Below, piece after piece: positions 2,888 to 47,717 of a stretch of 64,000 nucleotides of DNA. Under the pieces are notes generated by a model that was given only the letters and a program-made list of their open reading frames with translations, was not told the DNA's origin and did not search any database. This stretch comes from an uncultured Clostridia bacterium (GTDB taxonomy: Bacteria > Bacillota > Clostridia > TANB77 > CAG-508). Every line of letters starts with the position of its first letter. Position 1 is the stretch's first letter. Location: the NCBI GenBank assembly GCA_947581825.1, contig CANPVP010000002.1:104747-168746 (forward strand). Reading direction: 5' to 3'. Both the position numbers and the translations under genes were made by a program.

Positions 2888-3628
2888 ATGTATATAAATG
2901 ATACTCATATACTATATTATACAATTTTTGGTGTCATAGGTTTTGTAGTAGGAATTTTAACAAATTGGCTTAATACAAAATTACCAGAATATAAAAAAAC
3001 ACTTTCAAAAGAAAGATATAATCAATTAAAAGACAATGTAAAACCTAATTATTTAATTATATTATGTAATGTTTTAATATATATTGCTTTAGTCTATATT
3101 TTAGGAATAAAAAAAGATATATTAGAGAATATAACTTTATTAAAATATTTGATAATCACACCTTTTCTATTATCAATATTTAAAATAGATTATAATTATA
3201 AAATAATACCAAACAGGATTAATTTAGTACTTTTTGAAATTGGATTAGTATTTTTGTTTGTCCAAGGAATAATAAACATAAACATAGCAATAAATATGAT
3301 TTTAGGGATGTTGATAGGTGCAGGGGCATTTATGCTGATTACTATAATTGGAGGATTAGCTACTAAAAAGGATTCCATGGGATGGGGAGATGTTAAATTA
3401 ATGGGAGTTTTGGGACTTCTATTAGGTGTTACAAATATTACCATTGTAATGGTTTTGTCCTTCTTTATAGGTGCAATTATAAGTATAGTGTTGCTAATCT
3501 TTAAGAAAGTAAAAGAATATATTCCTTTTGGACCTTTTATAGTACTTGCGTGTTTTTCAATAATGCTTATACCAAATAATGTTATAATGAATATGTTAGT
3601 AAAAATACTTACTTTGGGAAGACAGTAA
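2888..3628 (+). CDS. type IV prepilin peptidase (A24 family)
   Basis: Polytopic membrane protein with the diagnostic GWGDVKLMGVLGLLLG aspartyl-protease motif. Confidence 0.75.
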   Translation: MYINDTHILYYTIFGVIGFVVGILTNWLNTKLPEYKKTLSKERYNQLKDNVKPNYLIILCNVLIYIALVYILGIKKDILENITLLKYLIITPFLLSIFKIDYNYKIIPNRINLVLFEIGLVFLFVQGIININIAINMILGMLIGAGAFMLITIIGGLATKKDSMGWGDVKLMGVLGLLLGVTNITIVMVLSFFIGAIISIVLLIFKKVKEYIPFGPFIVLACFSIMLIPNNVIMNMLVKILTLGRQ

Positions 3629-3661
3629 GATTAAATAATAAAAGAAAGGAGAACTGCTATA

Positions 3662-4729
3662 ATGAATGTTAGAGTTCGCTGGTTAAGAGATAGTTTGAGG
3701 AGCCTTAATCTAGACGGAATGATAGTTTCTAATCCTGTAAATATTAAATATTTAATAGGTGTAGAAGCTGAAGGAATCCTACTTATAACAAGAAAAGAAA
3801 ACATATATATAACTGATGGTAGATATACAGAAGCAGTAAATTCAATTTTAACAATAGATGATGAAATAATTGTTTCAGATATAAAAGATGTATCTAGTTA
3901 TGATTGTGAAAATTTCTTTTTGTTTTGTGAAAATGTCGGCTTTGAAGAAAATTATGTAACATATGCACAATATAAGCAATATATGCATCAATATAAAATC
4001 AACAATTTTGTAGAAACAGAATATATTATAGAAAAACATAGAATGATTAAAGATAAAGAAGAAATCGAAAATATAACAGAAGCATGTAAAATAACAGATA
4101 AATGTTTTGAACATTTATTAACATATATAAAAAAAGGAAAAACAGAAAAGGAAATTGCAACAGAAATAGAAAGATTCTTTAAAGAAAATGGGGCAGAAGG
4201 AAATTCTTTTGATTCAATAGTGGCTTCTGGAATAAATTCATCAATGCCACATGCTGTTCCTACAGATAGAAAAATACAATCCGGAGATATAATTACTATA
4301 GATTTTGGATGCAGATATAAAGGATATTGCTCTGATATGACAAGAACTATTTTTGTTGATTTTGTTCAAGACTATATAAAAGATGTTTATGATTTAGTAT
4401 TAAAAAATCAAAGAAACATGTTTAAAGAAATAAAAGAAGGTGCAAATACAAAGAATTTATTTAGAATGGTTAATAGCGATTTTAAAGTAAATGGTTTTTC
4501 TTTAATTCATGGATTAGGTCATGGAGTGGGCTTAGATATTCATGAAAGTCCAAGTTTAGGAGAACGTTCAGAAATGCTATTAAAAGAAAATATGGTTGTT
4601 ACAAACGAACCAGGAATATACATTCCAGGAAAATTTGGAGTTAGAATAGAAGATACAGTATTAGTAGATAAATATGGTTGTACAAGTCTTACAAAATCAG
4701 ATAAAAATTATATAATAATAAAAGCTTGA
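3662..4729 (+). CDS. M24-family Xaa-Pro aminopeptidase/dipeptidase
   Basis: Metal-ligand motifs [23 protein letters not shown] and VRIEDTVLV. 355 aa. Confidence 0.8.
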
Positions 4730-4796
4730 TTATAAAACCAATTTATGTTATAATACAGAGGAATTTTTATATTTTATAATAAAAGGAGAGATAATA

Positions 4797-5363
4797 ATGG
4801 CAGAAGTATATATGGCAGGAGATTTAAGAAATGGAACTACATTTGAAATGGATAATTCAGTATTTAAAGTTGTTGAGTTCCAACATGTAAAACCAGGGAA
4901 AGGTGCAGCTTTTGTAAGAACAAAGCTAAAAAATGTAATAACAGGAGCAGTTTTAGAGAAAACATTTAATCCATCTGAAAAATTACAAGGAGCAGAAATA
5001 GAGAAAAGAGAAATGCAATATTTATATAATGATGGAGACTTATATTATTTCATGGATAATGAAACATATGAGCAAATGCCTTTAAATAAAGAACAATTAG
5101 GTGACAGCTTAAAATATATAAAAGAAAATATGTCAGTTAAGATTTTATCTTTTAAAGGTAATGTTTTTTCAATCGAACCACCAATGTTTGTTGAATTAGA
5201 AGTAACATACACAGAACCAGGATTTAGTGGAAACACAACAACAACTTCAGGAAAACCAGCAACTTTGGAAAATGGATATGAAATATCAGTTCCACTATTT
5301 ATAAACATAGGAGATGTTATAAAAATAGATACAAGAACTGGAGAATACATGGAAAGAGTATAA
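4797..5363 (+). CDS. efp: elongation factor P
   Basis: [15 protein letters not shown] beta-hairpin with the modified Lys, 188 aa, strong ribosome binding site. Confidence 0.95.
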
Positions 5364-8482: not shown

Positions 8483-9889
8483 GTGGAAGAATTTGTAAAC
8501 AAAAAAGTAGAGGAGTTTAAATCATATATTTATAATAGAAAAGTAGCAATAATAGGTTTAGGAGTGAGCAATGTTCCTTTAATAAAATTCTTATATGATT
8601 TAGGTGCAATTATTACTGTATTTGATAATAGACCAGTAGAAAATATGCCAGAAGAAATACTACAAATATTATCAACTTGTAATATAGATAAAGCATTTGG
8701 TCCAGGTAATTTAAATAATTTATCAGGATTTGATATCATATTTAGATCTCCAAGCTGTTTGCCAACAACAAGAGAATTGGTTGAGGAAGAAAAAAGAGGA
8801 GCTATTATAACAACCGAAGTTGAAATGTTTATGAAATTATGTCCAGGAACAATAATTGGAGTAACAGGAAGTGATGGAAAAACAACAACTACATCACTTA
8901 TATACGAAATATTAAAACAAAAAGGATATAATTGTTATATAGGCGGAAATATAGGAATTCCATTATTTACAAGAATAGAAGAAATGAGACCTGAAGATAT
9001 AGTGGTTTTGGAATTAAGTAGTTTTCAATTAATGGGAATGGGTGTTAGTCCTAATATTGCTATCATAACTAATATAACTCCAAATCATTTAAATATTCAT
9101 AGTTCATATGAAGAATACATAGATGCCAAAAAGAATATATATAAATACCAAAATGAAAACGATATTTTAATATTAAATTATGATAATGAAATTACCCGTG
9201 AATGTGGATTAGAAGCAAAAGGAAAAGTTGAATTTTTTAGTAGAAAAAATAAATTAGATAATGGATTTATTGTAGATGAAGGTATAATAAAAATATGTGA
9301 AGACAAAATAAGAAGACATATATTAAATACTAAATCAACAATGCTTAAAGGGGAACATAATTATGAAAATATATGTGCAGCATTATTAGCGACTAGAAAC
9401 TTTGTAGATATAGAATCTGCAGTAGAAACAGTAAAGAATTTTCCTGGAGTACCTCATAGATTAGAATTAGTAAGAAGATTAAATGGTGTTAGATGGTATA
9501 ATGATTCAATAGGTACATCTCCAGTAAGAACAATTGCAGGATTAAATGCTTTTCAAGAGGAGATAATATTAATAGCAGGAGGATATGACAAGAATTTAGA
9601 CTATACACCAATAGGAAGACCAATTCTAAATAAAACAAAAGGGGTAATACTTTTAGGACAGACAGCGGATAAGATTATAGAAGCAATAGAAAATGAATCA
9701 AAAATAAGAAATAAAACAGTAGATATTTATAAATGTAAAACTTTAGAGCAATGCGTTAAACTAGCAAAGAATATAGCAAAGCCTGGTCAAATTGTATTAT
9801 TTTCACCAGCAAGTGCAAGCTTTGATATGTTTAAGAACTTTGAGGAAAGAGGAAACAAATTTAAAGAACTTGTAAATGGATTAGAATAA
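8483..9889 (+). CDS. murD: UDP-N-acetylmuramoyl-L-alanine--D-glutamate ligase (canonical-looking MurD)
   Basis: N-terminal Rossmann IIGLGVSN, P-loop GVTGSDGKTTTTS, NHLNIH...YIDAKKNIYKY (carbamylated-Lys region), PHRLELV, C-terminal SPASASFDMFKNFEERG. GTG start with G-rich ribosome binding site. Confidence 0.8.
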   Translation: MEEFVNKKVEEFKSYIYNRKVAIIGLGVSNVPLIKFLYDLGAIITVFDNRPVENMPEEILQILSTCNIDKAFGPGNLNNLSGFDIIFRSPSCLPTTRELVEEEKRGAIITTEVEMFMKLCPGTIIGVTGSDGKTTTTSLIYEILKQKGYNCYIGGNIGIPLFTRIEEMRPEDIVVLELSSFQLMGMGVSPNIAIITNITPNHLNIHSSYEEYIDAKKNIYKYQNENDILILNYDNEITRECGLEAKGKVEFFSRKNKLDNGFIVDEGIIKICEDKIRRHILNTKSTMLKGEHNYENICAALLATRNFVDIESAVETVKNFPGVPHRLELVRRLNGVRWYNDSIGTSPVRTIAGLNAFQEEIILIAGGYDKNLDYTPIGRPILNKTKGVILLGQTADKIIEAIENESKIRNKTVDIYKCKTLEQCVKLAKNIAKPGQIVLFSPASASFDMFKNFEERGNKFKELVNGLE

Positions 9890-9989: not shown

Positions 9990-10652
9990 ATGAAAACTAT
10001 ATTAGTTGTGGAAGATGATATGGATATTCACAATTTAATAAAAGAAGTGCTAGAACAAGAAAATTATAATGTTATAGATGCATATTCTGGAACAGAAGCA
10101 TTAATATTATTAAAAAATAAAAGAGTAGATTTGATATTATTAGATTTAATGCTTCCTGGATTAAATGGAGAAGAAATAGTAAAAGAAATAAAAAATATAC
10201 CAATTATAGTTATAAGTGCAAAAATATCTCAAGAAGACAAAATCAATGTATTATTAAATGGAGCAAATGATTATATTGTAAAACCCTTTGATAAAAATGA
10301 ATTATTAGCAAGAGTAAAAGTACAGTTAAGAATAAATGAGGGGAAAATAGATAATAAAGAAATCCAATTTAAAGATATGATTTTGAAAGAAGAGAATCAT
10401 GATATATATATTAAAGAGAAAAAAATACATCTAACTAAAACAGAGTATGCAATTTTAAAACAATTATTAATACATCAAAATCAAGTTATAACAAAAACTA
10501 AATTGTTAGAATTACTTAGTTATGACACTTTGGATTGTGATGAAAATTCTCTAAAAGTGCATATAAGTAATATAAGAAAAAAGATTAGAGAAATAACAGA
10601 AAAAGAATATATAGAGTCAGTATGGGGAATAGGCTTTAAGATTCATAAATAA
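9990..10652 (+). CDS. OmpR-family response regulator (REC + winged-helix)
   Basis: ILVVEDD...D52-type receiver and C-terminal trans_reg_C (VWGIGFKI). Sits upstream of the ABC ATPase, ABC-2 permease and histidine kinase of a Bce-like module. Confidence 0.85.
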   Translation: MKTILVVEDDMDIHNLIKEVLEQENYNVIDAYSGTEALILLKNKRVDLILLDLMLPGLNGEEIVKEIKNIPIIVISAKISQEDKINVLLNGANDYIVKPFDKNELLARVKVQLRINEGKIDNKEIQFKDMILKEENHDIYIKEKKIHLTKTEYAILKQLLIHQNQVITKTKLLELLSYDTLDCDENSLKVHISNIRKKIREITEKEYIESVWGIGFKIHK

Positions 10653-10685
10653 AATAGTAAAAATCTTTACTAAATTTTAACTATT

Positions 10686-10704
10686 TTCTTAACCGATTTC
10701 TTAA
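10686..10704 (+). promoter_or_regulatory. direct repeat TTCTTAA-N5-TTCTTAA (12-bp period) at the -35 region of the ABC operon promoter, a candidate response-regulator box
   Basis: Two exact TTTCTTAA octamers 12 bp apart, 40-55 nt upstream of the ABC ATPase start. OmpR-family regulators bind tandem direct repeats. Confidence 0.3.
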
Positions 10705-10741
10705 TTATTTAATTATAAAATAATATTGAAAGGAGGAGGTT

Positions 10742-11656
10742 ATGGAAAATATATTAGAAACTAAGCATATTGAGAAAAAATATAAGAAATTTAAAGCTTT
10801 AGATGGGATAAATATGCATGTTCCTAAAAAAGCAATATATGGGCTAGTTGGAAAAAATGGAGCGGGTAAAACGACTTTAATAAGAATTATTTGTGGTTTG
10901 CAAAAACCAACAAAGGGAACTTATACCATTTATAATACTGTTAATACAAGTAACCAAATAACAAAACAAAGAAAAAGAATAGGGGCAATAATAGAAGCTC
11001 CGTCAATTTGCTTAGATATGACAGCGGAAGATAATTTAAAAAAACAATGTAAAATTATAGGTATTCCTGATGAAGAAAATGTATATAAAATATTAAAGAC
11101 AGTTAATTTAGAAAATACTGGAAAGAAGAAAGCAAAGAACTTTTCGCTAGGAATGAAACAAAGACTAGGAATTGCTATAGCACTGGTAGGCAATCCAGAT
11201 TTTATAATATTAGATGAACCTATAAATGGTTTGGATCCAGCAGGAATAATAGAAGTAAGAGAATTAATTTTAAAATTAAATAAAGAAAATGGAATTACGT
11301 TTTTAATATCAAGTCATTATTTAGATGAATTATCTAAAATTGCTACTTGTTATGGCTTTATGAACAATGGAAAAATAGTAAAAGAAATTGATAAAGAAGA
11401 ATTAGAGAAAAGTCACAGAAAAAGAATAGAAATAAATGTTAATAATATAAAAGAATGCGTAAAATATTTAGAAGAAAATAAGATATCTTATCAAGTTATT
11501 TCAGATGAAGTAATAGATATATATGAAAAAGTAAATGTTTCAGAGATTGTAATAGCGCTTTCTAAAAGAGACTGTATTATTAATAGTTTTCAAGAAAAAT
11601 CTGAATCCCTAGAAAATTATTATTTAAATTTAATAGGAGGTGCAGATAATGTATAA
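10742..11656 (+). CDS. ABC transporter ATP-binding protein (BcrA/lantibiotic-immunity type)
   Basis: Walker A GKNGAGKTTL, signature FSLGMKQRLGIA, Walker B IILDEP. 304 aa with C-terminal extension. Confidence 0.85.
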   Translation: MENILETKHIEKKYKKFKALDGINMHVPKKAIYGLVGKNGAGKTTLIRIICGLQKPTKGTYTIYNTVNTSNQITKQRKRIGAIIEAPSICLDMTAEDNLKKQCKIIGIPDEENVYKILKTVNLENTGKKKAKNFSLGMKQRLGIAIALVGNPDFIILDEPINGLDPAGIIEVRELILKLNKENGITFLISSHYLDELSKIATCYGFMNNGKIVKEIDKEELEKSHRKRIEINVNNIKECVKYLEENKISYQVISDEVIDIYEKVNVSEIVIALSKRDCIINSFQEKSESLENYYLNLIGGADNV

Positions 11657-12513
11657 GTTATTAAAAGCAGGATTTTATAGATTAAGAAAAGAATTAGTTT
11701 TCAAACTGTTTATAGTTTCTTCGATTATAGTGGCTATATTTATTGCTAAAAAAGATTATAAAGCATGGGGACAAGTAGGAATAAATGAAGCAATAGTTGA
11801 GTTTATGATATATATAGGCTTTTTCATATCAATATTTGTGAGTATATTCGTAGGGAAAGAACATTCAGAAGGTATTATTAGAAATAAAATAATAGTACGG
11901 ACATAGTAGAACAGATATATATTTATCTAGAGTAATAATAAGTAGTATAGCATGCATGGCATGTGAGTTGATTTATGTAATTCTGGTAATATTAATGAGT
12001 TTTGTTATATTTGGAAATATACCACTTTCTGCAATATACTTTACTCCAAAAACTATATTATATATATTATTAATTATTATAGAATATTGTTCTATTTTTA
12101 ATTTTGTATCAATGATATGTTCAGAAATAACAGCTTCTATGATTATTAATATTTTATCTTTTTTTATAATATTTTCTATTGGAGCATATTTAGGAGGGAT
12201 TGCAAATAGTAGTAAATATATAAATGGAACATATACCGATGAAAATAATATTACTACTATTGTTAATCAAGAAATAAATCCCAATTATCCAGGAGATGAA
12301 AAAGTAAAAATGGCAAAAATAATTTGCCTATTTATTCCAGAAGAACAAGCAGGGAGCTTAATGGATGAAGCGAGTAGAGTTAAGTTGAATCAAATAGAAG
12401 ATTTAGAAATAAAAAATGAGTTTTTGAGATATACACCAATATGTGCGATAGTGCTAATTGGATTTGTAAATATTACAGGAGTATATGTATTTGGAAAAAA
12501 AGACCTAAAATAG
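11640..12513 (+). pseudogene. ABC-2 (lantibiotic-immunity MutE/EpiE-like) permease interrupted by a +1 frameshift at about 11896-11903 (ORFs 11640..11906 and 11956..12513)
   Basis: Frame A ends ...GIIRNKIIVRT*. Frame B is already open from 11896 as YGHSRTDIYLSRVIISSIACMACELIYV..., so a single extra base near gtacgga splits a contiguous permease of about 270 aa with 6 TM segments. Confidence 0.55.
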
Positions 12514-12523
12514 GAGGAAATTT

Positions 12524-13405
12524 GTGAACATTTACTTGGGAATAATATTTGTATTAATTATTATACTAACTATTATAAGTGCTAGGTTTTATTTAATAAA
12601 AAAATCAATAAAAGAAATAGAAGTATCTACAAGAGAAATATTAAAATCTGATACTAACAGTTTGATTACTATATCTACAGATAATAAAGAAGTAAAAGCA
12701 TTAGCAAAGGAGCTAAATATAGAGTTAAAAAATATAAGAGAGCAAAGACTTCAATATGAAAATGGAAATCAGGAATTAAAAAAAATAATAACTAACATTT
12801 CTCATGATATGAGAACCCCTTTAACTGCGATAAAAGGATATATAGATTTATTAAAAGAAGAAAATATAGAGGAAAAACAACAAGAATATTTGAGGATAAT
12901 AGAAAGAAAAACAGGAGATTTAGTGTTACTTACAGAGCAATTATTTGAGTTTTCAAAAATAATGGATACTGAAATAAAAATAGAAAAAGAAAATTGTTGT
13001 ATTAATGGAATGTTGGAAGATGCACTTACTAACTATTATACAATTTTCAAAGAGAAAAATATTATTCCAGATATAAATTTATGCGAAGAAAAAGTTTATA
13101 GAATGGTTGACAGAAATGCAATTAATAGGGTATTAGATAATATATTATCTAATATTAGCAAATATAGCAGTGGAGATTTAAAAGCGATTTTGGAAAAAAA
13201 TGGAAAGATAATCTTTTCCAATAAAGCAGAAGCTTTGGATGCAACAACAGTACAAAAAATATTTAATAGATATTTTACTGTAGAAAATGCAAAAAAATCT
13301 ACTGGAATAGGGTTAGCTATTGCTAAACAATTAGTAGAATTAAACGGGGGAAGTATAACAGCCCAATATGAAAACGGATATCTTATTATTGAGATAATAC
13401 TATGA
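12524..13405 (+). CDS. small intramembrane-sensing histidine kinase (BceS/SpaK-like)
   Basis: Short N-terminal TM, H-box ISHDMRTPLTAIKGYIDLL, G-box IGLAIAKQLVELNGGSI. 293 aa. Confidence 0.85.
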   Translation: MNIYLGIIFVLIIILTIISARFYLIKKSIKEIEVSTREILKSDTNSLITISTDNKEVKALAKELNIELKNIREQRLQYENGNQELKKIITNISHDMRTPLTAIKGYIDLLKEENIEEKQQEYLRIIERKTGDLVLLTEQLFEFSKIMDTEIKIEKENCCINGMLEDALTNYYTIFKEKNIIPDINLCEEKVYRMVDRNAINRVLDNILSNISKYSSGDLKAILEKNGKIIFSNKAEALDATTVQKIFNRYFTVENAKKSTGIGLAIAKQLVELNGGSITAQYENGYLIIEIIL

Positions 13406-18533: not shown

Positions 18534-19259
18534 ATGGGAAGAAAAAATCATAGAATTGGAAATGCTGGATGGAAGGATAAGTTTTATATAAATCCAGAAG
18601 AATTTGGAGTAACTAACCAAGAAAACAAAATAAAAATTGAGCCAACACCAGTAGAAAGAAAAGATAATAAAAAACAAGCTTTTGTAGATTCAATAAAGGT
18701 TAATAAAATGCCAACAGCAAAAAAGAAAGTTACTAATGCAGGAGAATATCCAGAAAATGCTGTTATAATTTCAATGGGAATTCCTAAATCTGGGAGAACT
18801 AATCTTTTAGGAAATTTATTTAAGCAAGAAGAAATATATTCTTTTATAAAAACAGAAAGAGAAGATTATATTAGAAATGTACAACAAGCAATATTAGAAA
18901 AAAAAGATGAGAAAGTTGTTATTGATGCTCCTTTTTTAGATATGAAATTTAGAAAAGCAATATATAGAGCTACTAAAGAAGCCGGAAAAACTGTTTTTAT
19001 AATGAATTATAAGGTTCCATATCAGGAGTGTCTAAAGAAAATACAAAAAAAGAATAACCCAAATGCTGTAAGAATAAACGAAAATAATTTAGTAAAAGCT
19101 TATGCAAAGTTTAAAGAGATACAAGATGGATTTGAAGATGAGTTAGCAAAATACGAAATGATTAATGATGAGTATGAAAGTCAAGTGGTAGATATTATAA
19201 ATGCTCAAAAGAAAGTGGCAACAGGGAACAAGATAAACGTTGATGAAAATTGTAAATAA
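18534..19259 (+). CDS. hypothetical protein with a kinase-like nucleotide-binding fold and a degenerate P-loop (GIPKSGRT: Lys to Arg)
   Basis: VIISMGIPKSGRTNLLGNLF resembles GxPGSGKS/T P-loops of AAA_33/polynucleotide-kinase-like proteins, but with Arg at the Walker lysine. 241 aa. Confidence 0.4.
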   Translation: MGRKNHRIGNAGWKDKFYINPEEFGVTNQENKIKIEPTPVERKDNKKQAFVDSIKVNKMPTAKKKVTNAGEYPENAVIISMGIPKSGRTNLLGNLFKQEEIYSFIKTEREDYIRNVQQAILEKKDEKVVIDAPFLDMKFRKAIYRATKEAGKTVFIMNYKVPYQECLKKIQKKNNPNAVRINENNLVKAYAKFKEIQDGFEDELAKYEMINDEYESQVVDIINAQKKVATGNKINVDENCK

Positions 19260-19271
19260 GATATATAATAA

Positions 19272-19303
19272 AAAAGAAAGAAGTATTAATTTCTTTCTTT
19301 TTT
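19272..19303. terminator. bidirectional terminator (aagaaagaa-gtattaat-ttctttctt-TTTT)
   Basis: Lies between convergent genes 18534 (+) and 19302 (-). Confidence 0.55.
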
Positions 19304-19625
19304 AACTTTCAGCGATGACTTTAGCTATATTATAAATTAATTTTTGTTTTTCAGGGGAACATTTTTTTAACAATGAGCTAAAATCTCTTTGCATATAATC
19401 AGATGCATTAGAAGAAGAACCATTTAAAATATCTCCTTCAGATAATCCTAGGATGGAACATATTTCACTAAGTCTTGTTAGATTTATATGAGCATTACCA
19501 CGTTCAACTCTACTTAAAAAGGCAACAGACAAATCTAGTTTTTCGGCTAATTTTTCTTGAGTGAATCCTCTGGCTAAACGGGCTTTTTTTAATCTTTCGC
19601 CAATAATTATATAATCTAAAGCCAT
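19302..19625 (-). CDS. XRE-family helix-turn-helix transcriptional regulator
   Basis: IGERLKKARLARGFTQEKLAEKLDLSVAFLSRVERG helix-turn-helix. Divergent from the 19829/21210 pair. Confidence 0.8.
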   Translation of the reverse strand: MALDYIIIGERLKKARLARGFTQEKLAEKLDLSVAFLSRVERGNAHINLTRLSEICSILGLSEGDILNGSSSNASDYMQRDFSSLLKKCSPEKQKLIYNIAKVIAES

Positions 19626-19828
19626 AAATGCTCCCTCCTTTATTTAGTAAATATAGCACTCATAGGTAGATATAAGAAGAAACATATGAGTAAATATTAA
19701 CCATTAATATGATTTGTGAAATTAGGTATTTTATACGAATATTAATGAATTATATTAAGTCTAAATATTTACAAATAATATAAAATAATATATAACTTAG
19801 ATAATATATTTATATAGTGGAGGTATTT

Positions 19829-21217
19829 ATGATAAATAACATGGAGAAATTTTTAGAACTAAGAAATAAGCATAAAGAGTTCATATATGATAGTTACAAA
19901 GTCTTTGAGGACAGTGAATATATATGTATCGAATATAAATTTGAAATTCCAGATTTAAAAATTTTTACTCCAAGCATAAAAATTAAGAAAAAGAGTTTAA
20001 TTGTAAATAATATAGAGAATAATAAAGAATATATAAATCATTTAGTCTTTCATATAGGTATGATTGAATTAATAAGTTATTGGAAATGTGTATGTTCTCC
20101 AAATGTAATAATAAAATGCGGAAAAATAAATGATGAACAAATTAAGTGGTTTAAAAAGTTATATTTTTATGGCTTAGGAGAATTGTTTTTTACAAACAAT
20201 ATAAAAACAAATATAAATGAATTTATGAATATAATTTGTGAAGGAGAAAAAGATTATTCTAGTGTAGAAGTAAATAGTAACAATTTTAGTTTCAAGAATT
20301 ATATAATTCCTATTGGAGGAGGAAAAGATTCTGTTGTAACATTAGAGTTATTAAAGAGTAAAGAAAATAAATTAGCCTTAATAATAAATCCAAAACCAGT
20401 AACTTTAAAATGTGCTGAACTTGCAGAAATAGAAGCAGATAAAATTATTGAAGTTAAAAGAGTAATAGATAAAGAATTATTAGATTTAAATTCTAAAGGA
20501 TACATAAATGGACACACACCATTTTCATCTGTATTAGCTTTTATATCATATTTGGTAGCTTTTTTAACAGGAAGAGAATATATAGCTCTATCTAATGAGT
20601 CAAGTGCAAATGAATCGAATGTAGATGGAGAGAAAATAAATCATCAGTATTCAAAAAGTTATGAGTTTGAAAAAGATTTTGAAGAATATTCAAATAAATA
20701 TTTAAAATTACCTATAAAATATTTCAGCTTTTTAAGACCATTAAATGAATTACAAATAGCAATGATATTTTCAAGATACGAAAATTATCATAAAGTATTT
20801 AAGAGTTGTAATGTTGGAAGCAAAGGAGAGGTATGGAAGTGGTGCTGTGAATGCCCTAAATGCCTATTTGCATATATAATGCTTAGTACATTTTTATATA
20901 AAGAAAAAATTGTAAATATATTTGGAAAAGATATGTTTGAAGATAAAAACATGGAAGAAACTTTTATAGATTTAATAGGAAAAGGTAAGAATAAACCATT
21001 TGAATGTGTTGGAACATATGAAGAAGTGAATTGTGCAATTAGTAAAACTATAAAAAATATAGAAGCAAAAGGTGAAAAGTTACCATACTTATTGGAACTT
21101 TACAAAGAAAATTATAAAATAGAAGATATTTCTGAGGAATTATTGAAAAGGTATAATAATGAAAATAATTTATCAGAAGAACAAGAAAAGATACTAAAGG
21201 GAGCTATTTATGATTAG
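19829..21217 (+). CDS. PP-loop (N-type ATP pyrophosphatase)-like protein with N-terminal domain of unknown function and CCxCxxC cysteine cluster
   Basis: The ORF track starts at GTG 19817. ATG 19829 follows GGAGGT. IIPIGGGKDSVVTLELL matches the SGGxDS PP-loop. Also SNESSANE, WCCECPKC and ECVGTYEEVNC. The stop overlaps the start of the downstream MurD-like gene (ATGATTAG). Confidence 0.55.
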   Translation: MINNMEKFLELRNKHKEFIYDSYKVFEDSEYICIEYKFEIPDLKIFTPSIKIKKKSLIVNNIENNKEYINHLVFHIGMIELISYWKCVCSPNVIIKCGKINDEQIKWFKKLYFYGLGELFFTNNIKTNINEFMNIICEGEKDYSSVEVNSNNFSFKNYIIPIGGGKDSVVTLELLKSKENKLALIINPKPVTLKCAELAEIEADKIIEVKRVIDKELLDLNSKGYINGHTPFSSVLAFISYLVAFLTGREYIALSNESSANESNVDGEKINHQYSKSYEFEKDFEEYSNKYLKLPIKYFSFLRPLNELQIAMIFSRYENYHKVFKSCNVGSKGEVWKWCCECPKCLFAYIMLSTFLYKEKIVNIFGKDMFEDKNMEETFIDLIGKGKNKPFECVGTYEEVNCAISKTIKNIEAKGEKLPYLLELYKENYKIEDISEELLKRYNNENNLSEEQEKILKGAIYD

Positions 21218-22604
21218 TAATTTAATTGAATATTTAAAAGATAAAAAAATATTAATTTTAGGATTTGGAGTAGAAGGACAGTCAACATATAAAGTAATAA
21301 GAAAATATTTAAAAGATCAATTATTATATATTGCTGATAAAGAAAAAAATTTTAATGAAAAATATGAGATGCTTACAGATGATGTCAATTCAAAATTTAT
21401 AAGTGGAGACGATTATTTAAAAAATATAGATAATTACGATTTGATAATAAAATCACCAGGAATATCACTTAAAGATATAGATATAACTAAATTTAAAGAA
21501 AAAATAACATCTCAATTAGAGTTGTTGTTAGAATTTTTTGATGTTTATACAATTGGTATAACTGGAACAAAAGGAAAAAGTACAACAAGTTCATTAATTT
21601 ATGAAATGATAAAGCAACAAGGGAAAAAAGTTTTGCTTCTTGGAAATATTGGAATTCCAATATTTGATTATATTGATGTAATAGAAAAAAATATGATAGT
21701 TGTGTTAGAAATATCATCTCATCAATTAGAATATGCCAAAAAATCACCTAATATTTCTATATTTCTTAATTTATATGAAGAACATTTAGATCATTATAAA
21801 TCAATTAACGAATATATAGAAGCAAAAGCAAATATTTTTAAATATAAGAAAAAAGAAGATTTCTTTTTATACAATGCAGATAACAAAAGTGTTAGAGATG
21901 TAGTGAAAAAGCATCAACAAGATATGAAAGAAAATTATTATAATGTATATCCTATAAGCTTTGAAAATAAAGAATATTATGAGAAGAATAAATTTGTTTA
22001 TGAAAACGGAGTAGTAAAGGATTCAAATAATGTAAAGTTATACAATTCAACTGATAAAAGAAAACTATTGGGAGATCATAATCTTAATAATATTATGTTT
22101 GTTTTGGCAGTTAGTGAGATTTTAAAATTAGATTTGCAAAAAACAATAAAAACAATAAATAATTTTAATCCATTGCCACATAGAATGGAGCTAGTAGGTA
22201 CTTTTGATGAAGTAACATATTTTAATGATTCTATAGCAACAGTTCCAGAATCAGCGATAAATTCAATAAAGGCAATAACGAATGTTAATACCTTAATAAT
22301 AGGGGGAATGGATAGAGGAATAAACTACAAAGAGTTTATAAAATTCCTAGAAGAAAGCAATATAGAGAATTTAATATGCTTACCAACAACTGGACATAAT
22401 ATAGCAGAACAAATAAAAAATGAAAAAATGAGTATATATAAAGTGGAAACAATGGAAGAAGCGGTAAAGATAGCAAAAGAAGTTACAAAAAAAGGAACTA
22501 ATTGTTTATTATCTCCAGCAGCATCTAGCTATGGATTTTTCAAAAATTTCAAAGAAAGAGGAGAAAAGTATAAAAGATTAATAAAAGAAGCTTATTCGAA
22601 ATAA
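21210..22604 (+). CDS. second MurD-family (UDP-MurNAc-L-Ala--Glu ligase-like) paralog, translationally coupled to the PP-loop protein
   Basis: ILILGFGVEGQS Rossmann, P-loop GITGTKGKSTTSS, EHLDHY...EAKANIFKY, PHRMELVG, divergent C-terminus SPAASSYGFFKNFKERG. Ribosome binding site AAGGGAG inside the upstream gene. Confidence 0.75.
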   Translation: MISNLIEYLKDKKILILGFGVEGQSTYKVIRKYLKDQLLYIADKEKNFNEKYEMLTDDVNSKFISGDDYLKNIDNYDLIIKSPGISLKDIDITKFKEKITSQLELLLEFFDVYTIGITGTKGKSTTSSLIYEMIKQQGKKVLLLGNIGIPIFDYIDVIEKNMIVVLEISSHQLEYAKKSPNISIFLNLYEEHLDHYKSINEYIEAKANIFKYKKKEDFFLYNADNKSVRDVVKKHQQDMKENYYNVYPISFENKEYYEKNKFVYENGVVKDSNNVKLYNSTDKRKLLGDHNLNNIMFVLAVSEILKLDLQKTIKTINNFNPLPHRMELVGTFDEVTYFNDSIATVPESAINSIKAITNVNTLIIGGMDRGINYKEFIKFLEESNIENLICLPTTGHNIAEQIKNEKMSIYKVETMEEAVKIAKEVTKKGTNCLLSPAASSYGFFKNFKERGEKYKRLIKEAYSK

Positions 22605-22620
22605 AAATATTTTAAAAATT

Positions 22621-22651
22621 AAAGCCTACAGAAAGTATCTGTAGGCTTTTT
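22621..22651. terminator. bidirectional terminator (aaagcctacag-aaagtat-ctgtaggcttttt)
   Basis: Perfect 11-bp stem plus T-run after the MurD paralog. Also ends the nth/micro-ORF transcript on the minus strand. Confidence 0.7.
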
Positions 22652-38663: not shown

Positions 38664-39314
38664 ATGGTAAAAATAACCTTAATAATTATAATCTGGGCTT
38701 TAGCGGGTATACTTATTGTTCAAAATGTTTCATATACAAAAATTATATCTGGAATTAAAAATTCTCAGGGAAGTAATTTAATAGAAAATATTAATAGCAA
38801 AGATAAAAATGAAAAAACAAAAAATAATGAAAATACATTTATCCAAAACAATATTAATACTAAGAAAAATAATAATACTAAAAAGAACAATAATACAAAT
38901 AAACCAAAAGAAACAAAAAGATTTGTAGCAAAAGTTATTGGTACATTATCTATTCCAGATATTGAAATAAATGAAAAAAATATATATGAAGGAACAGAAT
39001 TAGATATTTTAAATATAGGAATAGGACATTTTACTAATACGAGTATTTGCAATGGAAATGTGGGCTTAGCTAGCCATAATTCTGGTGGAAAGGGTGATGA
39101 GTTTAAAAATTTAAAAAATATAAAAGTTGGAAGTGAAATATATTATAAAACAAAATACGATTCTAAAACTTATTCGGTCGAAATAGTTAAAGAGATTTCA
39201 GATGAGGATTGGTCATATTTGTCAGAAACTAAGGATAATAGGATTACTTTACTAACATGCATATCTGGAAAACCCAATAGCAGATTATGTGTTCAAGGAA
39301 AAGAAAAAACATAA
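38664..39314 (+). CDS. sortase (class B-like transpeptidase)
   Basis: N-terminal TM, His in GLASH, catalytic TLLTC and downstream Arg (SRL). 216 aa. Weak ribosome binding site. Confidence 0.7.
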   Translation: MVKITLIIIIWALAGILIVQNVSYTKIISGIKNSQGSNLIENINSKDKNEKTKNNENTFIQNNINTKKNNNTKKNNNTNKPKETKRFVAKVIGTLSIPDIEINEKNIYEGTELDILNIGIGHFTNTSICNGNVGLASHNSGGKGDEFKNLKNIKVGSEIYYKTKYDSKTYSVEIVKEISDEDWSYLSETKDNRITLLTCISGKPNSRLCVQGKEKT

Positions 39315-39388
39315 AGAACGAATGAAAAGGTATACTAACAATAATTGTTAGTAAGAAACAGTATAAAATACAAATAGGAGATGTAAAA

Positions 39389-41536
39389 ATGAAAGTTAGA
39401 TTTAAAAAAATACTAATAATGTTAATGATATTAGTTAATATCATTCAAATTAATATATGTTCTTTTGCAGAACTAGAAAAAAATCAGAAAATTAAATTAA
39501 AAAGTAATGGTATGCTAGATTGTTTATTGCAATTTTATAAAGAATCAATATCAGACTGGAGTTATAAAGTAGGGTACTATATATACTACTCAGATGAAGA
39601 TAATGGAAAGAAAGTTCCAGCAATTTGCGTAGAACCATCTAAGGATGGAGTGGGTGAACTAGGAAGCTATGATACAACTATAGATGTGTGCAATGATAAT
39701 GGTATATATACAATATTATATATTTTCAATAATAAGAAATATACTTCATGGAACTTGAAAAATGAAAAAGATTACTACTTAGCAGTTCAAACAGCAATGC
39801 ATTGCTATTCTGAGAAAATAAGCCCCAAAAAGAAATATCGAGTTGGAGATAGGGTTTTGGAAGGATATACACCAAAGACTTTAGAAGAAATAAAATCAAG
39901 AGGAAAAGCTGTTTTAAATACAGCAGAGAGTTTATATAATTCAGCAATAAAAAAAGAATATAAACAAGATTATTTATCCATTGATTTAAAAGAAAAAAGT
40001 GATTGGATAGAAGAAAAAATAAATGGAAAAGCATATTATTCTAAAAAATATGAAGTAGAATCAAACGTAAAATTAGATTATTATAAAATAGATGTTTCAG
40101 AATTATGGAATAATGCTAAAATATTTGATATGAAAAATAATAATATCAAAGAAAAATCAAAAGTTACAAATAATGAATTTAAAGTTTCTATTGAAAAGAG
40201 TGAGATTTCAACTCCTAAAACAATAAAAGGTAGAATAAAAATAGAATCTGCTACAGCAAAATTACCAACGGCAGTGTATGCTAATAGTAACAAAGGAAAC
40301 ACGCAAAATTATGTAATATTTACAGATAAAACTCAACAGGTAACAAAAGTAAAGACAACTGGTTTTACAACAGTAAACAATAAAATTAAAATACATAAAT
40401 TAGATTCTAATACAAAAGTTCCATTAGAAGGTGTAGACTTTAAAATATATAGTAAACAAAAAGATAGTAATGGTAAATATATTTTAAATGAAGACACATA
40501 TATATTAACAACTGACAAGAGTAATTTAAAAGGAGAAATCTCTCTCAATATAGAAAAAGCTGGAGATTATGTAGCTATAGAAAATACAGCTCCAACAGGA
40601 TATGTTTTATCAGATAAAACATATGAGTTTTCAGTTGATGTAGGCATTGCACCAAAAGATATAAAAATAAATATAGAAAATGATTTAATAAAAGGAAAAA
40701 TTGAAATACTAAAAAAATCAAAAGGATATAATCAGTTTTTAAATATAGAAGATGGAAAACCTTTAGAAGGTGCAAAGTATAAAATAGAGGATGCTAATGG
40801 AAATCTAATAGGAACATATACTACAAATTCAGAAGGCTTAATACTATCAAAAGATTTACCATATGGAGAATACAAAATATATGAGATAGAAAGTCCAAAA
40901 TTCTATAATCTTAATACTGAGCCTCAAACAATATTTATAAATGAAAATCAGAAAAAATACACAGTTATCTTTGAAAACGAATCATCTGAAGTTGAACTAA
41001 AAATTGAAAAATCAGGAACAAAAGAGACCGAATCAGGAAAAAAGGTAGAGTATGAATTTGATAATTTAGAAAACAAATCAAATGTTGCAGTTAATAATTT
41101 TACATGGAAAGATGTACTTCCAACTGATGCTGTTAGAATTAATGAGATTTCAACAGGAACATGGAAAGATGAAGTCGAATATTCAATTTGGTATAAAACA
41201 AATTTAAATAATAAATATGTCCTTTATAAAGATAAATTAAATTCAAAGAATAATTATAATTTTAATATGAATGAAATAAAATTATCAAAGAATGAATATA
41301 TTACAGAATATGAATTTAGATTTGGAACAGTTAATCCAGGATTCAAAGAAGAAATTAATCCTAAAATTTATTGTCAGGTATTAAAAGGTTTGAAAAGTGG
41401 GTATGAATTTACAAACAATACATATTTAACTGCAACATATTTTGACGAAAAAATTGAAGAACATGATAAATGGAAAACGTTTGTATATAATAAAGAAACT
41501 CCACAAAAGAATAAATTGCCTAAAACAGGAATATAA
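39389..41536 (+). CDS. secreted pilin/adhesin-like protein with two SpaA/Cna-B-type isopeptide domains, ending ...NKLPKTGI* (LPxTG without membrane anchor)
   Basis: Signal peptide. Prealbumin-fold repeats (VDFKIY...IENTAPTGYVLSDKTYEF; GAKYKIED...YGEYKIYEIESPKFYN). LPKTG is the penultimate motif, followed by one residue and a stop. No hydrophobic tail in any frame downstream. Confidence 0.7.
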   Translation: MKVRFKKILIMLMILVNIIQINICSFAELEKNQKIKLKSNGMLDCLLQFYKESISDWSYKVGYYIYYSDEDNGKKVPAICVEPSKDGVGELGSYDTTIDVCNDNGIYTILYIFNNKKYTSWNLKNEKDYYLAVQTAMHCYSEKISPKKKYRVGDRVLEGYTPKTLEEIKSRGKAVLNTAESLYNSAIKKEYKQDYLSIDLKEKSDWIEEKINGKAYYSKKYEVESNVKLDYYKIDVSELWNNAKIFDMKNNNIKEKSKVTNNEFKVSIEKSEISTPKTIKGRIKIESATAKLPTAVYANSNKGNTQNYVIFTDKTQQVTKVKTTGFTTVNNKIKIHKLDSNTKVPLEGVDFKIYSKQKDSNGKYILNEDTYILTTDKSNLKGEISLNIEKAGDYVAIENTAPTGYVLSDKTYEFSVDVGIAPKDIKINIENDLIKGKIEILKKSKGYNQFLNIEDGKPLEGAKYKIEDANGNLIGTYTTNSEGLILSKDLPYGEYKIYEIESPKFYNLNTEPQTIFINENQKKYTVIFENESSEVELKIEKSGTKETESGKKVEYEFDNLENKSNVAVNNFTWKDVLPTDAVRINEISTGTWKDEVEYSIWYKTNLNNKYVLYKDKLNSKNNYNFNMNEIKLSKNEYITEYEFRFGTVNPGFKEEINPKIYCQVLKGLKSGYEFTNNTYLTATYFDEKIEEHDKWKTFVYNKETPQKNKLPKTGI

Positions 41537-45869: not shown

Positions 45870-47717
45870 TTATAGTTCAATTTGAGGTTGATACTTTTCA
45901 AGCCACATATTTACTTGACAAATGTAAGCCATAAGTTGAGGACCAGTCATTAGTTGCCCAAACCAAGGTCTAGAAAATGCTGTACCTTCAGTTTCTAAAA
46001 TTTCTTTTATATAGTTTTTATTAAGCAAATCATAGATAGGTGCATTTGGATTTTCTATAATTTTATTAAGTTTGTATTTTACAACTTTTAAGTAAGTTGG
46101 ATTATGTGTTTTGGGGTAAGGACTTTTTTTCCTTTCAACAATTTCTTGAGGCAATAGCTCTTTTACTATATAACGAAGTAATCCCTTTTCACGCCCATTT
46201 AATGCTTTAATTTCCCATGGAATGTTCCATAAATATTGTACTAACCTATAATCACAAAATGGAACTCTTAATTCTAAGCCATTATACATAGACATCCTAT
46301 CTGAACGATCTAAAAGAGTTTGCATAAACCAATTCATTGTTAAATATGAGATTTTTCTTTTCTCAGCAGTATCTGTGGAATCCGAATCTAATATTACAAC
46401 ATGAGAAAGACTTTCTTTATATTGATAATCAATATAATCTTTTAAATTAACTTGCTTTGAGATTTCAGGATTTAATAGTCTTTGCCTTTCAGAGAGTGCA
46501 ATAGACCATGGAAAAGTATTGCTATTTAAAGCATCTTCACGGAAAAACCATGGATAGCCTGCAAAAATTTCATCAGAACATTCTCCAGATAAAGCAACAG
46601 TAGCTCCTTTTCTTATATTTTTACAGAATAATAGCATAGATGAATCAATATCGGCCATACCAGGATAATCTCTAGCAATCATTGAAGCTTCCAAATATTC
46701 TGCCAATTCTGGAGTATCAATAACAATTTGGTGATGATTTGTATTAAATTCATTTTTCATTATATCAATATAATAATTATCTGAATTTGGTTGAAAATCA
46801 CTTTTTACAAAATTTTTATCATTATCTATATAATCAACTGAATAAGTTTCTAATGGTTGTAATCCTTTAGAAGAATAATAATTACTTGCATATGCTGTTA
46901 TAATACTTGAATCTAACCCACCAGACAACATTGAGCATAGAGGAACATCTGATACTAATTGTCTTTTTATACTATCTTCTAACAAATATTGAACAGTTTC
47001 ACAAGTAGTATTAAAGTCATCTGTATGAGGGGTGCTTTCAAGTTTCCAATACTGTTCTAAATGAATACCATATTTGTTAAATAAAAGGAAATGAGCAGGT
47101 TTTAATTCTTTAATGTTTTTAAAAATGCCATTACCAGGAGTGTGAGCAGGGCCAAGACCAAACAATTCACAAATGCTAGATGAATCTAGCGATATTTTTA
47201 TTTTAGGATGTTTGAATAATGCTTTTACTTCAGAGGCAAAAATTAAAGTATTATCTACTATAGTATAGTATAAGGGTTTTATTCCAAAATGATCACGAAC
47301 CAAGCATAGTTCTTGCTTTTCTTCATTCCATATAGCAAAACTAAAGATACCATTTAATTTATGTAGAACTTCAGTACCATAACAAATAAAACTTTTTAAT
47401 AAAACTTCTGTATCACAATAACCTGTAAAGTCAAAGCCTTTTTCAATTAATTCTTGTCTTAATTCTTTGGCATTATATAATTGACCATTATATACTATAG
47501 TATAGTTATTATTAAAGTAAGAAGCTTTCATCGGTTGTTTTCCATTTTCAGCGTCAATAATTATAAGTCGTCTATGACCAAAGCCAATATGTTCATGTAC
47601 ATAAAAACCTTCTTCGTCAGGACCTCGTTTTTGTAAACAATTATTCATATTTTTTAATATATGAATATCATTTGATATATTTTCTTTTAAATTAGAAAAA
47701 CCAACAAATCCACACAT
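45870..47717 (-). CDS. asnB: asparagine synthase (glutamine-hydrolysing), AsnB family
   Basis: N-terminal nucleophile MCGFVGF, GATase-2 domain, PP-loop LSGGLDSS. 615 aa. Confidence 0.9.
   Translation of the reverse strand: MCGFVGFSNLKENISNDIHILKNMNNCLQKRGPDEEGFYVHEHIGFGHRRLIIIDAENGKQPMKASYFNNNYTIVYNGQLYNAKELRQELIEKGFDFTGYCDTEVLLKSFICYGTEVLHKLNGIFSFAIWNEEKQELCLVRDHFGIKPLYYTIVDNTLIFASEVKALFKHPKIKISLDSSSICELFGLGPAHTPGNGIFKNIKELKPAHFLLFNKYGIHLEQYWKLESTPHTDDFNTTCETVQYLLEDSIKRQLVSDVPLCSMLSGGLDSSIITAYASNYYSSKGLQPLETYSVDYIDNDKNFVKSDFQPNSDNYYIDIMKNEFNTNHHQIVIDTPELAEYLEASMIARDYPGMADIDSSMLLFCKNIRKGATVALSGECSDEIFAGYPWFFREDALNSNTFPWSIALSERQRLLNPEISKQVNLKDYIDYQYKESLSHVVILDSDSTDTAEKRKISYLTMNWFMQTLLDRSDRMSMYNGLELRVPFCDYRLVQYLWNIPWEIKALNGREKGLLRYIVKELLPQEIVERKKSPYPKTHNPTYLKVVKYKLNKIIENPNAPIYDLLNKNYIKEILETEGTAFSRPWFGQLMTGPQLMAYICQVNMWLEKYQPQIEL

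Follow-up and report, generated by a model that had tools for sequence, protein, structure and literature searches.

The closest described counterpart of the genes discussed here is the MurD2/MurL system (XOO_1320 and XOO_1319) of Xanthomonas oryzae, which was characterized by Feng et al. in 2017 and has since been reviewed (PMC8788868, PMC5808125). MurL is a unidirectional epimerase that consumes one ATP and releases AMP, and orthologs of the two proteins are known from Stenotrophomonas, Micromonospora, and Salinispora, within a published spread that takes in the Xanthomonadales, a few Alphaproteobacteria, and rare actinobacteria, with orthologs of low similarity in cyanobacteria, a fungus, and an amoeba (PMC8788868, PMC5808125). 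Bacteria with MurD2/MurL are said to be without enzymes that form D-glutamate (D-Glu) (PMC8788868, PMC5808125), and MurL has been described as a protein without known conserved domains whose mechanism is "not clear" (PMC8788868). Our literature searches found no report of MurD2/MurL in Firmicutes and no newer paper on the structure or mechanism of MurL. Here we describe two overlapping genes in a 64-kb stretch of DNA (contig CANPVP010000002.1; GC content, 27%; referred to here as the window) from an uncultured Clostridia bacterium, which are predicted to encode a MurL homolog (19829..21217, plus strand) and a MurD2-type ligase (21210..22604, plus strand). The window also encodes SpoIVA and therefore comes from a spore-forming Firmicute; the nearest genomes are metagenome-assembled genomes (MAGs) of uncultured Clostridia from the gut of rabbit, ruminant, mouse, chicken, and human. 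Homology, modeled fold, signature residues, synteny, and gene fusions were observed as set out below, and with these we consider it quite probable that the pair constitutes a MurD2/MurL route, by which D-glutamate would enter the peptidoglycan precursor without passing through free D-Glu.

The product of the 19829 gene has a single match in NCBIfam, the UDP-N-acetyl-alpha-D-muramoyl-L-alanyl-L-glutamate epimerase model NF041275 (230.8 bits, E = 2.1e-68), with an alignment that spans model positions 57 to 396 of 447. In precomputed Pfam annotations, the domains MurL_N (PF26299) and MurL_epimerase_C (PF26298) are found on this protein and on all 120 homologs listed; an older Pfam release without the MurL models gave no match, a blank that is due to the version gap and not to the absence of a family. 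In a tblastn search of plasmid records, the protein matched a gene that is annotated as murL on a replicon of Xanthomonas sacchari (E = 1e-40; identity of 28.8%, with 70% of the query covered). When the protein was aligned with Xanthomonas MurL, a Pseudonocardia homolog, and four distant representatives, 50 columns were invariant, and these contain every motif that the initial annotation of this DNA had named. The invariant motifs are GGGxDS, GH.P, NE.SA, NHQ.SK, SCN, WC..C.KC, and KPF.CVG; in the 19829 protein, IGGGKDS is located at amino acids (aa) 162 to 168, SNESSANESN at aa 255 to 264, WCCECPKC at aa 338 to 345, and KPFECVG at aa 389 to 395. These motifs do not vary anywhere in the MurL family, not even in the Xanthomonas protein, which is 25% identical, and are thus more than a chance resemblance. 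The initial annotation had mentioned a MurL-like function as a possibility and had named a tRNA-modification family as the assignment that would speak against it; the profiles give MurL, and NF041275, the two Pfam domains, and the motifs common to the X. sacchari enzyme bear the suggestion out. By its sequence, the 19829 protein is thus a homolog of MurL, and from the characterized homologs it is expected to be an ATP-dependent L-to-D epimerase. A sequence search of the PDB did not find a solved MurL structure and returned only a noise match (E = 0.023).

Stand-alone MurL-like genes were seen on mobilizable actinobacterial plasmids, with no adjacent Mur ligase gene. One of them, on plasmid pPaSha1 of Pseudonocardia alni (L092:4764-6164; NF041275, 323 bits), is annotated as hypothetical and has a helix-turn-helix (HTH) gene and a gene for a WD40 protein as neighbors; the matches H3 and H4 are further examples. 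Judging from these plasmid genes, the MurL family may have roles beyond pairing with MurD2.

The fold of the 19829 protein was predicted with AlphaFold2 from 54 sequences (predicted local distance difference test score, 89.4; predicted template modeling score, 0.90). A MurL_N domain of approximately aa 1 to 150 is followed by a QueC-like PP-loop domain with a Rossmann-like α/β fold, in which the loop IGGGKDS (20312..20332, plus strand), a variant of SGGxDS, lies between strand 1 (aa 158 to 161) and helix 1 (aa 166 to 174), i.e., in the classical PP-loop position. Residues G163, G164, G165, D167, and S168 are invariant, Xanthomonas and Pseudonocardia homologs included. A Foldseek comparison with the PDB gave one significant match, to the QueC-family protein QatC over approximately 400 columns, the others being Rossmann-fold noise, so that the assignment of a PP-loop in the initial annotation stands on both loop position and fold. 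Four cysteines that are invariant family-wide, C327-(x)11-C339-xx-C342-xx-C345 (20807..20863, plus strand), form a predicted zinc site, and an hhalign comparison of the MurL alignment with Escherichia coli QueC aligned the Cys motif only, on C188/C197/C200/C203, and weakly (E = 0.056). According to a 2026 survey, the text of which does not include MurL, the hallmarks of QueC are SGGxDS and a C(x)8CxxCxxC zinc motif, with a spacing variant in QatC (PMC13329287). The QueC family PF06508 was not matched in Pfam at E ≤ 0.01. Given the placement of the PP-loop, the fold match to QatC, and the four-Cys motif, MurL may act like a QueC-type carboxylate-adenylating enzyme while not being a PF06508 member by sequence, and this would fit the published AMP stoichiometry and the authors' own hypothesis of α-carboxylate adenylation (PMC8788868). 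Within KPFECVG (20993..21013, plus strand), residues K389, P390, F391, C393, V394, and G395 are invariant; Cys393, which is not among the cysteines of the zinc motif, is a candidate for a role in catalysis. In one family member, P0122 (619 aa), the C-terminal part of MurL is preceded by an inserted DUF559 domain.

The second gene encodes a 464-aa protein with the Pfam domains MurD-like_N, Mur_ligase_M, and Mur_ligase_C and the motifs GTKGKST, EEHLD, EAKANIF, PHRMEL, and SPAASSYGFFKNFKERG, and the equivalents of the catalytic P-loop Lys, His183, and Lys198 are kept. The murD model TIGR01087 scores this ligase at 350 bits and the MurD encoded at 8483 in the window at 382 bits; since X. sacchari MurD2 also scores as murD (298 bits), this model does not distinguish MurD from MurD2. 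Near the glutamate site, X. oryzae MurD2 differs from E. coli MurD by E197/D182, R358/K348, P433/A414, and F435/L416; the E197D/R358K double mutant switches completely to D-Glu, and mutation of Pro433 or Phe435 leaves stereospecificity unaffected (PMC8788868). Alignment with E. coli MurD and X. sacchari MurD2 as reference sequences places Glu191 of the window ligase, in YEEHLD before the catalytic His192 (21774..21791, plus strand), at Glu197 of X. oryzae MurD2 and Asp182 of E. coli MurD, and Arg369, in GGMDRG (22302..22319, plus strand), at Arg358 and Lys348, respectively, with a Gly directly after it as in Xanthomonas MurD2. Toward the C terminus, Tyr441-Gly442 in SPAASSYG (22512..22535, plus strand) corresponds to S-F-G in Xanthomonas and to S-[LF]-D in canonical enzymes, an aromatic residue and a following Gly being common to the first two. 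Thus, at the His motif, the Lys348 region, and the C-terminal Glu-site motif, the window ligase reads EEHLD, MDRG, and SSYG and Xanthomonas MurD2 reads PEHLD, HDRG (in HDRGLD), and PSFG, compared with EDHMD, DGKS, and ASLD in E. coli MurD and PNHLN, YDKN, and ASFD in the 8483 protein.

As a control, homologs of the 8483 protein (n = 119) were set beside the ligases encoded next to murL in related genomes (n = 77). The residue at the Lys348 position is Arg in all 77 linked ligases and Lys in all 119 homologs of the 8483 type, and the next position (349) is Gly in 77/77 and mostly Asn or His, respectively. At the Asp182 position, 68 linked ligases have Glu and 9 have Asp, compared with Asn in 119/119; at the Leu416 position, Tyr (77/77) is set against Phe (118/119), and at position 417, Gly (72/77) against Asp (118/119). 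The linked ligases keep the catalytic set as well as equivalents of Thr321, Ser415, and Phe422, which bind Glu. Glu191 and Arg369, together with the contrast to the 119 paralog homologs, uphold the earlier reading of this protein as a MurD2-like ligase: its sequence identifies it as MurD2-type and not as a duplicate of an ordinary MurD, and the signature residues and the Xanthomonas enzymes would predict a preference for L-glutamate (L-Glu).

The start of the ligase gene lies inside the stop region of murL, with an 8-nucleotide (nt) overlap, ATGATTAG (21210-21217, plus strand), and AAAGGGAG is the ribosome-binding site upstream of the ligase ATG. The murL frame encodes 462 aa from its ATG, which is preceded at a distance of 5 nt by GGAGG (19819-19823); with translation from a GTG at 19817 instead, the product would have 466 aa. 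Downstream of the ligase gene, a bidirectional intrinsic terminator (22621..22649; 12-bp stem and T-runs on each strand) is shared with the convergent nth gene, and such terminator-like sites are in excess (3 observed versus 0.4 expected). The overlap, the ribosome-binding site, and the strong terminator point to a compact two-gene operon that is translationally coupled and would extend from a promoter just upstream of 19829 to 22621-22649. The three open reading frames (ORFs), the quoted motifs, the stop/start overlap, and the second MurD at 8483, all of which had been reported in the initial annotation, are present in the sequence as described.

To follow the pair in other genomes, we scanned one genome per GTDB species with two clade-specific MurL peptide patterns, which gave at least 212 species-level relatives, and 80 loci were retrieved. 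In all 80, murL is followed on the same strand by this type of ligase gene, mostly overlapping or abutting, and -8 was the commonest spacing (17 of 41 loci scored in a crude search that took the first in-frame ATG of the ligase). The same order is found in X. sacchari, where murL and murD2 overlap by 20 nt. A profile search carried out exhaustively placed 3,094 clusters (50% identity) in the MurL family at a cutoff of E ≤ 1e-3; at E ≤ 1e-30, the number was 1,402. Lengths of 830 to 1,250 aa are frequent among them, and the long proteins that were checked are fusions: MurL-MurD (P0129), MurD-MurL (P0135), MurL-MurD-M20 amidohydrolase (P0140, 1247 aa), and MurE-MurL (P0208, 932 aa), the MurE part of the last scoring 463 bits with the murE model. 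The E/D-H and D-R-G motifs are kept in nearly all fused MurD parts checked. Since it is fused to both the preceding and the following enzyme, MurL would sit at the step of the UDP-N-acetylmuramoyl (UDP-MurNAc)-dipeptide. The pairing, which might have been peculiar to one strain, is thus general across the 80 species-level loci and extends to Xanthomonas and to the fusions.

A few loci in this survey showed peculiarities. In seven species-level relatives, the MurL-linked ligase gene has a +1 frame change at one site, TAT TC[T/A] C|GG[A/G] GAA GAA (L055:3182-3329, L056:7478-7625, L059:7572-7707, L060:7478-7625, L064:3192-3339, L066:7543-7654, and L070:7497-7644), with third-position variation that follows frame 0 before and frame +1 after the site. 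Both parts are intact, the C-terminal parts being 73 to 95% identical pairwise and free of internal stops, and the 0-frame codon at the site is CGG, which accounts for 3 of 21,195 codons in these genomes. The sequence suggests either a hungry codon at which a +1 frameshift is programmed or a gene that is split in two; the ligase gene in the window is in one frame throughout. Clostridia-type murL-ligase pairs (55 to 59% identity) were also found in MAGs labeled Candidatus Saccharibacteria (L082, CARTQV010000038.1), Muribaculaceae (L086, CAYMEJ010000025.1), and Bacilli (L087, JAZQIU010000006.1), labels that imply misbinned contigs or horizontal transfer. The L086 ligase ORF measures approximately 735 codons from stop to stop (3122-5332) and may be an extension or fusion.

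The paralog encoded at 8483..9889 (plus strand; 468 aa) is a MurD of the canonical type, with SPASASFDMFKNFEERG, Asn201-His202, Lys370, and Phe447-Asp448. Its gene lies after cmk, outside any division and cell wall (dcw) cluster and 10 kb upstream of the pair, so that the MurD2-type ligase is not the sole MurD-type ligase of this genome. The two ligases share approximately 34% identity and fall into separate clades. The equivalents of the P-loop Lys, His183, Lys198, Thr321, Ser415, and Phe422 are kept in the 8483 protein, and its 119 homologs are 63 to 99% identical. Between the window species and a sister species (locus L009), this MurD is at least 90% identical, compared with 87% for MurL and 83% for the MurD2-type ligase; murL and the linked ligase gene thus evolve somewhat faster than the canonical murD. 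With its catalytic residues kept and at least 90% identity between sister species, the 8483 protein appears to be a working enzyme, and its sequence predicts a D-Glu-adding ligase. A canonical-type MurD and the MurL/MurD2-type pair occur together in three species, that of the window included. To our knowledge, the published hosts of MurD2/MurL have no canonical MurD. With regard to the supply of D-Glu, no Asp_Glu_race or Aminotran_4 domain was found in the window or within about 20 kb beyond its ends, and this says little about murI or a D-amino-acid transaminase either way, as the approximately 84 kb searched are about 4% of a genome of about 2 Mb.

For the pair itself, three steps can be envisaged. 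The MurD2-type ligase would add L-glutamate to the cell wall precursor; MurL would bind ATP at its PP-loop and adenylate the α-carboxylate of the terminal L-Glu with release of pyrophosphate, upon which the C-α proton of the activated residue would be removed and returned from the opposite face, presumably via an enzyme base or an oxazolone; and MurE would take the epimerized product. The scaffold for this reaction would be a PP-loop Rossmann domain with a four-Cys zinc knuckle, and the N-terminal domain probably holds the UDP-MurNAc-dipeptide. For this particular pair, the L-Glu ligase and ATP-to-AMP epimerase activities are predicted by analogy with the Xanthomonas and actinobacterial enzymes.

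Several findings weigh against this reading. The score of 230.8 bits is far under the NF041275 equivalog cutoff of 700 bits, a cutoff that is tuned to the Xanthomonadales (836 bits for X. sacchari MurL and 323 bits for the Pseudonocardia homolog), and identity to MurL of the characterized clade is 25 to 29%. In the ligases, Asp and not Glu precedes the His in the 9 linked proteins mentioned above, and the secondary MurD2 positions differ, Pro433 being replaced by Ser440 and Phe435 by Tyr441. Arg by itself does not identify a MurD2, because it is also found at the position of Lys348 in Streptococcus mutans MurD, which uses D-Glu (PMC8788868). In a simple neighbor-joining tree, the linked ligases did not group specifically with Xanthomonas MurD2 (27% identity), and the E/R signature could therefore be convergent. 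Biochemical data are confined to members outside the Firmicutes, and with a conserved canonical-type MurD in the same organism, the pair is not obviously required.

Among the alternatives, one that the initial annotation had placed beside epimerization is amidation, in which the PP-loop enzyme would adenylate the α-carboxylate of Glu and transfer ammonia to give iso-glutamine at the stage of the nucleotide precursor. The adenylation step would be common to both, but neither a glutaminase domain nor a glutaminase partner gene was present across the 80 loci, for characterized members, the products on record are the D-epimer and AMP and not an amide (PMC8788868), and all residues that are invariant in the family are common to Xanthomonas MurL. 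Moreover, a ligase with L-Glu determinants leaves an L-residue that MurE should not accept unless it is epimerized, and the MurE-MurL fusion fits a direct hand-over of a D-Glu product. Since a MurL homolog is combined with a MurD2-type partner, epimerization is the branch of the earlier proposal that is supported, and we regard amidation as very improbable. It would be still harder to believe that the 8483 protein is inactive and that all MurD activity comes from the MurD2-type ligase, as in Xanthomonas. While the location of the 8483 gene after cmk and outside a dcw cluster could be taken in favor of this, the protein scores 382 bits with TIGR01087, all catalytic and Glu-binding equivalents are present, and the conservation of the N/K/F/D residues in 119 homologs, with at least 90% identity between sister species, indicates strong purifying selection; an inactive 8483 copy, which the initial annotation had considered as an objection, is thus very improbable.

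A somewhat more serious alternative is that the 8483 MurD is the housekeeping enzyme and the pair a tailoring module for another substrate or residue, such as a second acidic or a non-Glu amino acid, or a UDP-sugar-peptide outside peptidoglycan synthesis. The coexistence with a canonical-type MurD in three species would agree with this, as would the higher conservation of that MurD between sister species, the low identity of the pair to characterized MurL and MurD2 enzymes, and the stand-alone MurL-like genes on Pseudonocardia plasmids, according to which the family may not be monofunctional. On the other hand, the Glu-binding and catalytic residues are kept, the specific E/R signature is that of the L-Glu enzyme MurD2, the MurE fusion ties MurL to the step just before MurE, and the pair is intact in 80/80 species. 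We consider this alternative unlikely, and a MurD2/MurL route to D-Glu in the peptidoglycan precursor remains the reading that we prefer.

The Clostridia pair resembles X. oryzae MurD2/MurL in its two protein families, gene order, E/R determinants, and invariant MurL motifs, and in overlapping reading frames as seen in X. sacchari. It differs in its occurrence in another phylum, in uncultured gut and rumen Clostridia with 27% GC DNA that are absent from the published distribution, in an identity of 25 to 29%, in having Ser and Tyr in place of Pro433 and Phe435, and in the additional presence of a canonical-type MurD. Compared with QueC, Cap9, and QatC, MurL has Gly and not Ser as the first P-loop residue, a Cys spacing of x11 and not x8, an extra N-terminal domain of approximately 150 aa, and no significant match to PF06508, and the predicted outcome is epimerization of a peptide C terminus and not nitrile formation or protein deazaguanylation. 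The route shares with canonical MurD plus MurI (or a D-amino-acid transaminase) a ligase with the three-domain Mur fold and the same catalytic residues; unlike there, the configuration of the residue would be fixed on the nucleotide-peptide once ligation is complete, which costs a second ATP and requires no pool of free D-Glu. Similar to the lipid II iso-glutamine synthase MurT/GatD, a Mur-ligase-family protein is combined with a second enzyme that would act on the α-carboxylate of Glu, but the lipid II substrate, the glutaminase partner, and the activation by phosphorylation in MurT are features of that system that are absent here.

The initial annotation presented the coupling as more novel than it is, since the characterization of MurD2/MurL dates from 2017 and both Pfam and NCBIfam include MurL families. 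What is new is the occurrence in Clostridia, the coexistence with a canonical-type MurD in three species, and the QueC-like fold predicted for MurL. The case made for MurD2/MurL as a target of narrow-spectrum antibiotics was that only a few genera, among them Xanthomonas and Stenotrophomonas, were thought to have the pair (PMC8788868). As the pair is widespread in gut and rumen Clostridia, inhibitors could also hit commensals, unless the canonical MurD rescues them. Two ligase types in one organism offer a natural system for asking why a second ATP is spent on epimerization after ligation, and the predicted QueC-like PP-loop plus zinc architecture provides a testable framework for the mechanism of MurL. 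We can only speculate, and think it possible but doubtful, that two D-Glu routes are maintained across a large clade of gut Clostridia that form spores, or that these small genomes lack murI and MurD serves to salvage exogenous D-Glu, and that MurL is the first PP-loop peptide epimerase. In the case of two routes, the canonical MurD would work on free D-Glu and MurD2/MurL would be racemase independent, each for different conditions, such as a scarcity of D-Glu or the vegetative wall as opposed to the spore cortex. MurL would be the first zinc-dependent enzyme on a QueC scaffold to epimerize a peptide by carboxylate adenylation, which would settle the mechanism called unclear in the literature (PMC8788868).

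A gene for an XRE-family HTH protein (19302..19625, minus strand; 107 aa; Pfam HTH_3, E = 1e-13) lies upstream of murL and diverges from it across 203 bp (19626..19828), not the 190 bp given in the initial annotation. Upstream of murL, this gene was found only in the window species and in the sister species L009, whose MurL is 87% identical, and it is absent next to murL in 79 other species. In GCA_016648615.1 (MurL 78% identical), the context cmk-murD ... yceG ... murL-ligase is retained with a different small gene at the XRE position, and more distant relatives have unrelated neighbors, e.g., enolase upstream and ylmH and folD downstream. Its distribution marks the XRE gene as a lineage-specific neighbor and not as a component of the module. 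Within the intergenic region, the block 19766-19828 is near-identical in L009 and contains a putative murL promoter, TTTACA (19768-19773) and TATAAC (19791-19796) with a 17-nt spacer, which is our own proposal and not in the list of a promoter scan; promoter-like sites in that scan were not enriched (32 versus 30.5 expected). The palindromes of the earlier description are real: ATATTAA-CCA-TTAATAT is located at 19694-19710, with a 1-mismatch copy at 19752-19768, and these are the only two matches in 64 kb (0.8 expected by chance). In an alignment with L009, neither copy was preserved, though L009 has the XRE gene.

ATATTAA-N3-TTAATAT might conceivably be an XRE operator, an idea that we hold with low confidence; as a conserved feature, such an operator was ruled out by the comparison with L009 and the synteny survey. 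It is improbable, if less so than the alternatives discussed for the pair, that in this one species the XRE protein is dedicated to repressing murL-murD2 via the two sites. Both matches fall within the 203-bp region, one overlapping a promoter-like site on the minus strand (19720..19693), the putative XRE promoter, and the other adjoining TTTACA at 19768, the putative murL -35 element; set against this, of more than 80 species, only 2 have the XRE gene beside murL, the palindromes are lost in a sister species that retains it, and short AT palindromes are common in 27% GC DNA, with promoter-like sites not enriched. The dedicated XRE switch that had been proposed is therefore not upheld.

Some other genes of the window may be mentioned. 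The 241-aa product of the gene at 18534-19259 (plus strand), which is convergent with the XRE gene, has a weak match to AAA_33 (P-loop kinase-like) and none in NCBIfam; in sister species, the gene is retained upstream of murL, with yceG/mltG on its other side, and in GCA_016648615.1, the equivalent position is taken by a 306-aa gene that is possibly its counterpart. The region 9990-13405 (plus strand), which directly follows the canonical murD, encodes a response regulator, an ABC ATPase, an ABC-2 permease, and a histidine kinase. The permease is split into ORFs of 85 and 185 aa in the window and in contig L002 and is intact (288 aa) in L001 and L003 of the same species, which would be a strain-level inactivation or an assembly difference. 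A surface-pilus locus at 38664-41536 (plus strand), with a sortase gene, a gene for a 715-aa SpaA-type (prealbumin-like fold) pilin or adhesin, and a DUF3417 glycogen-phosphorylase-like gene, is unrelated to murL-murD2. Homologs of AsnB-type asparagine synthases, such as LtsA/AsnB1, amidate meso-diaminopimelate in peptidoglycan. A glutamine-dependent asparagine synthase of the AsnB type (GATase_7 plus Asn_synthase), a member of the PP-loop family, is encoded at 45870-47717 (minus strand) and comes closer than MurL to the amidation role considered in the initial annotation.

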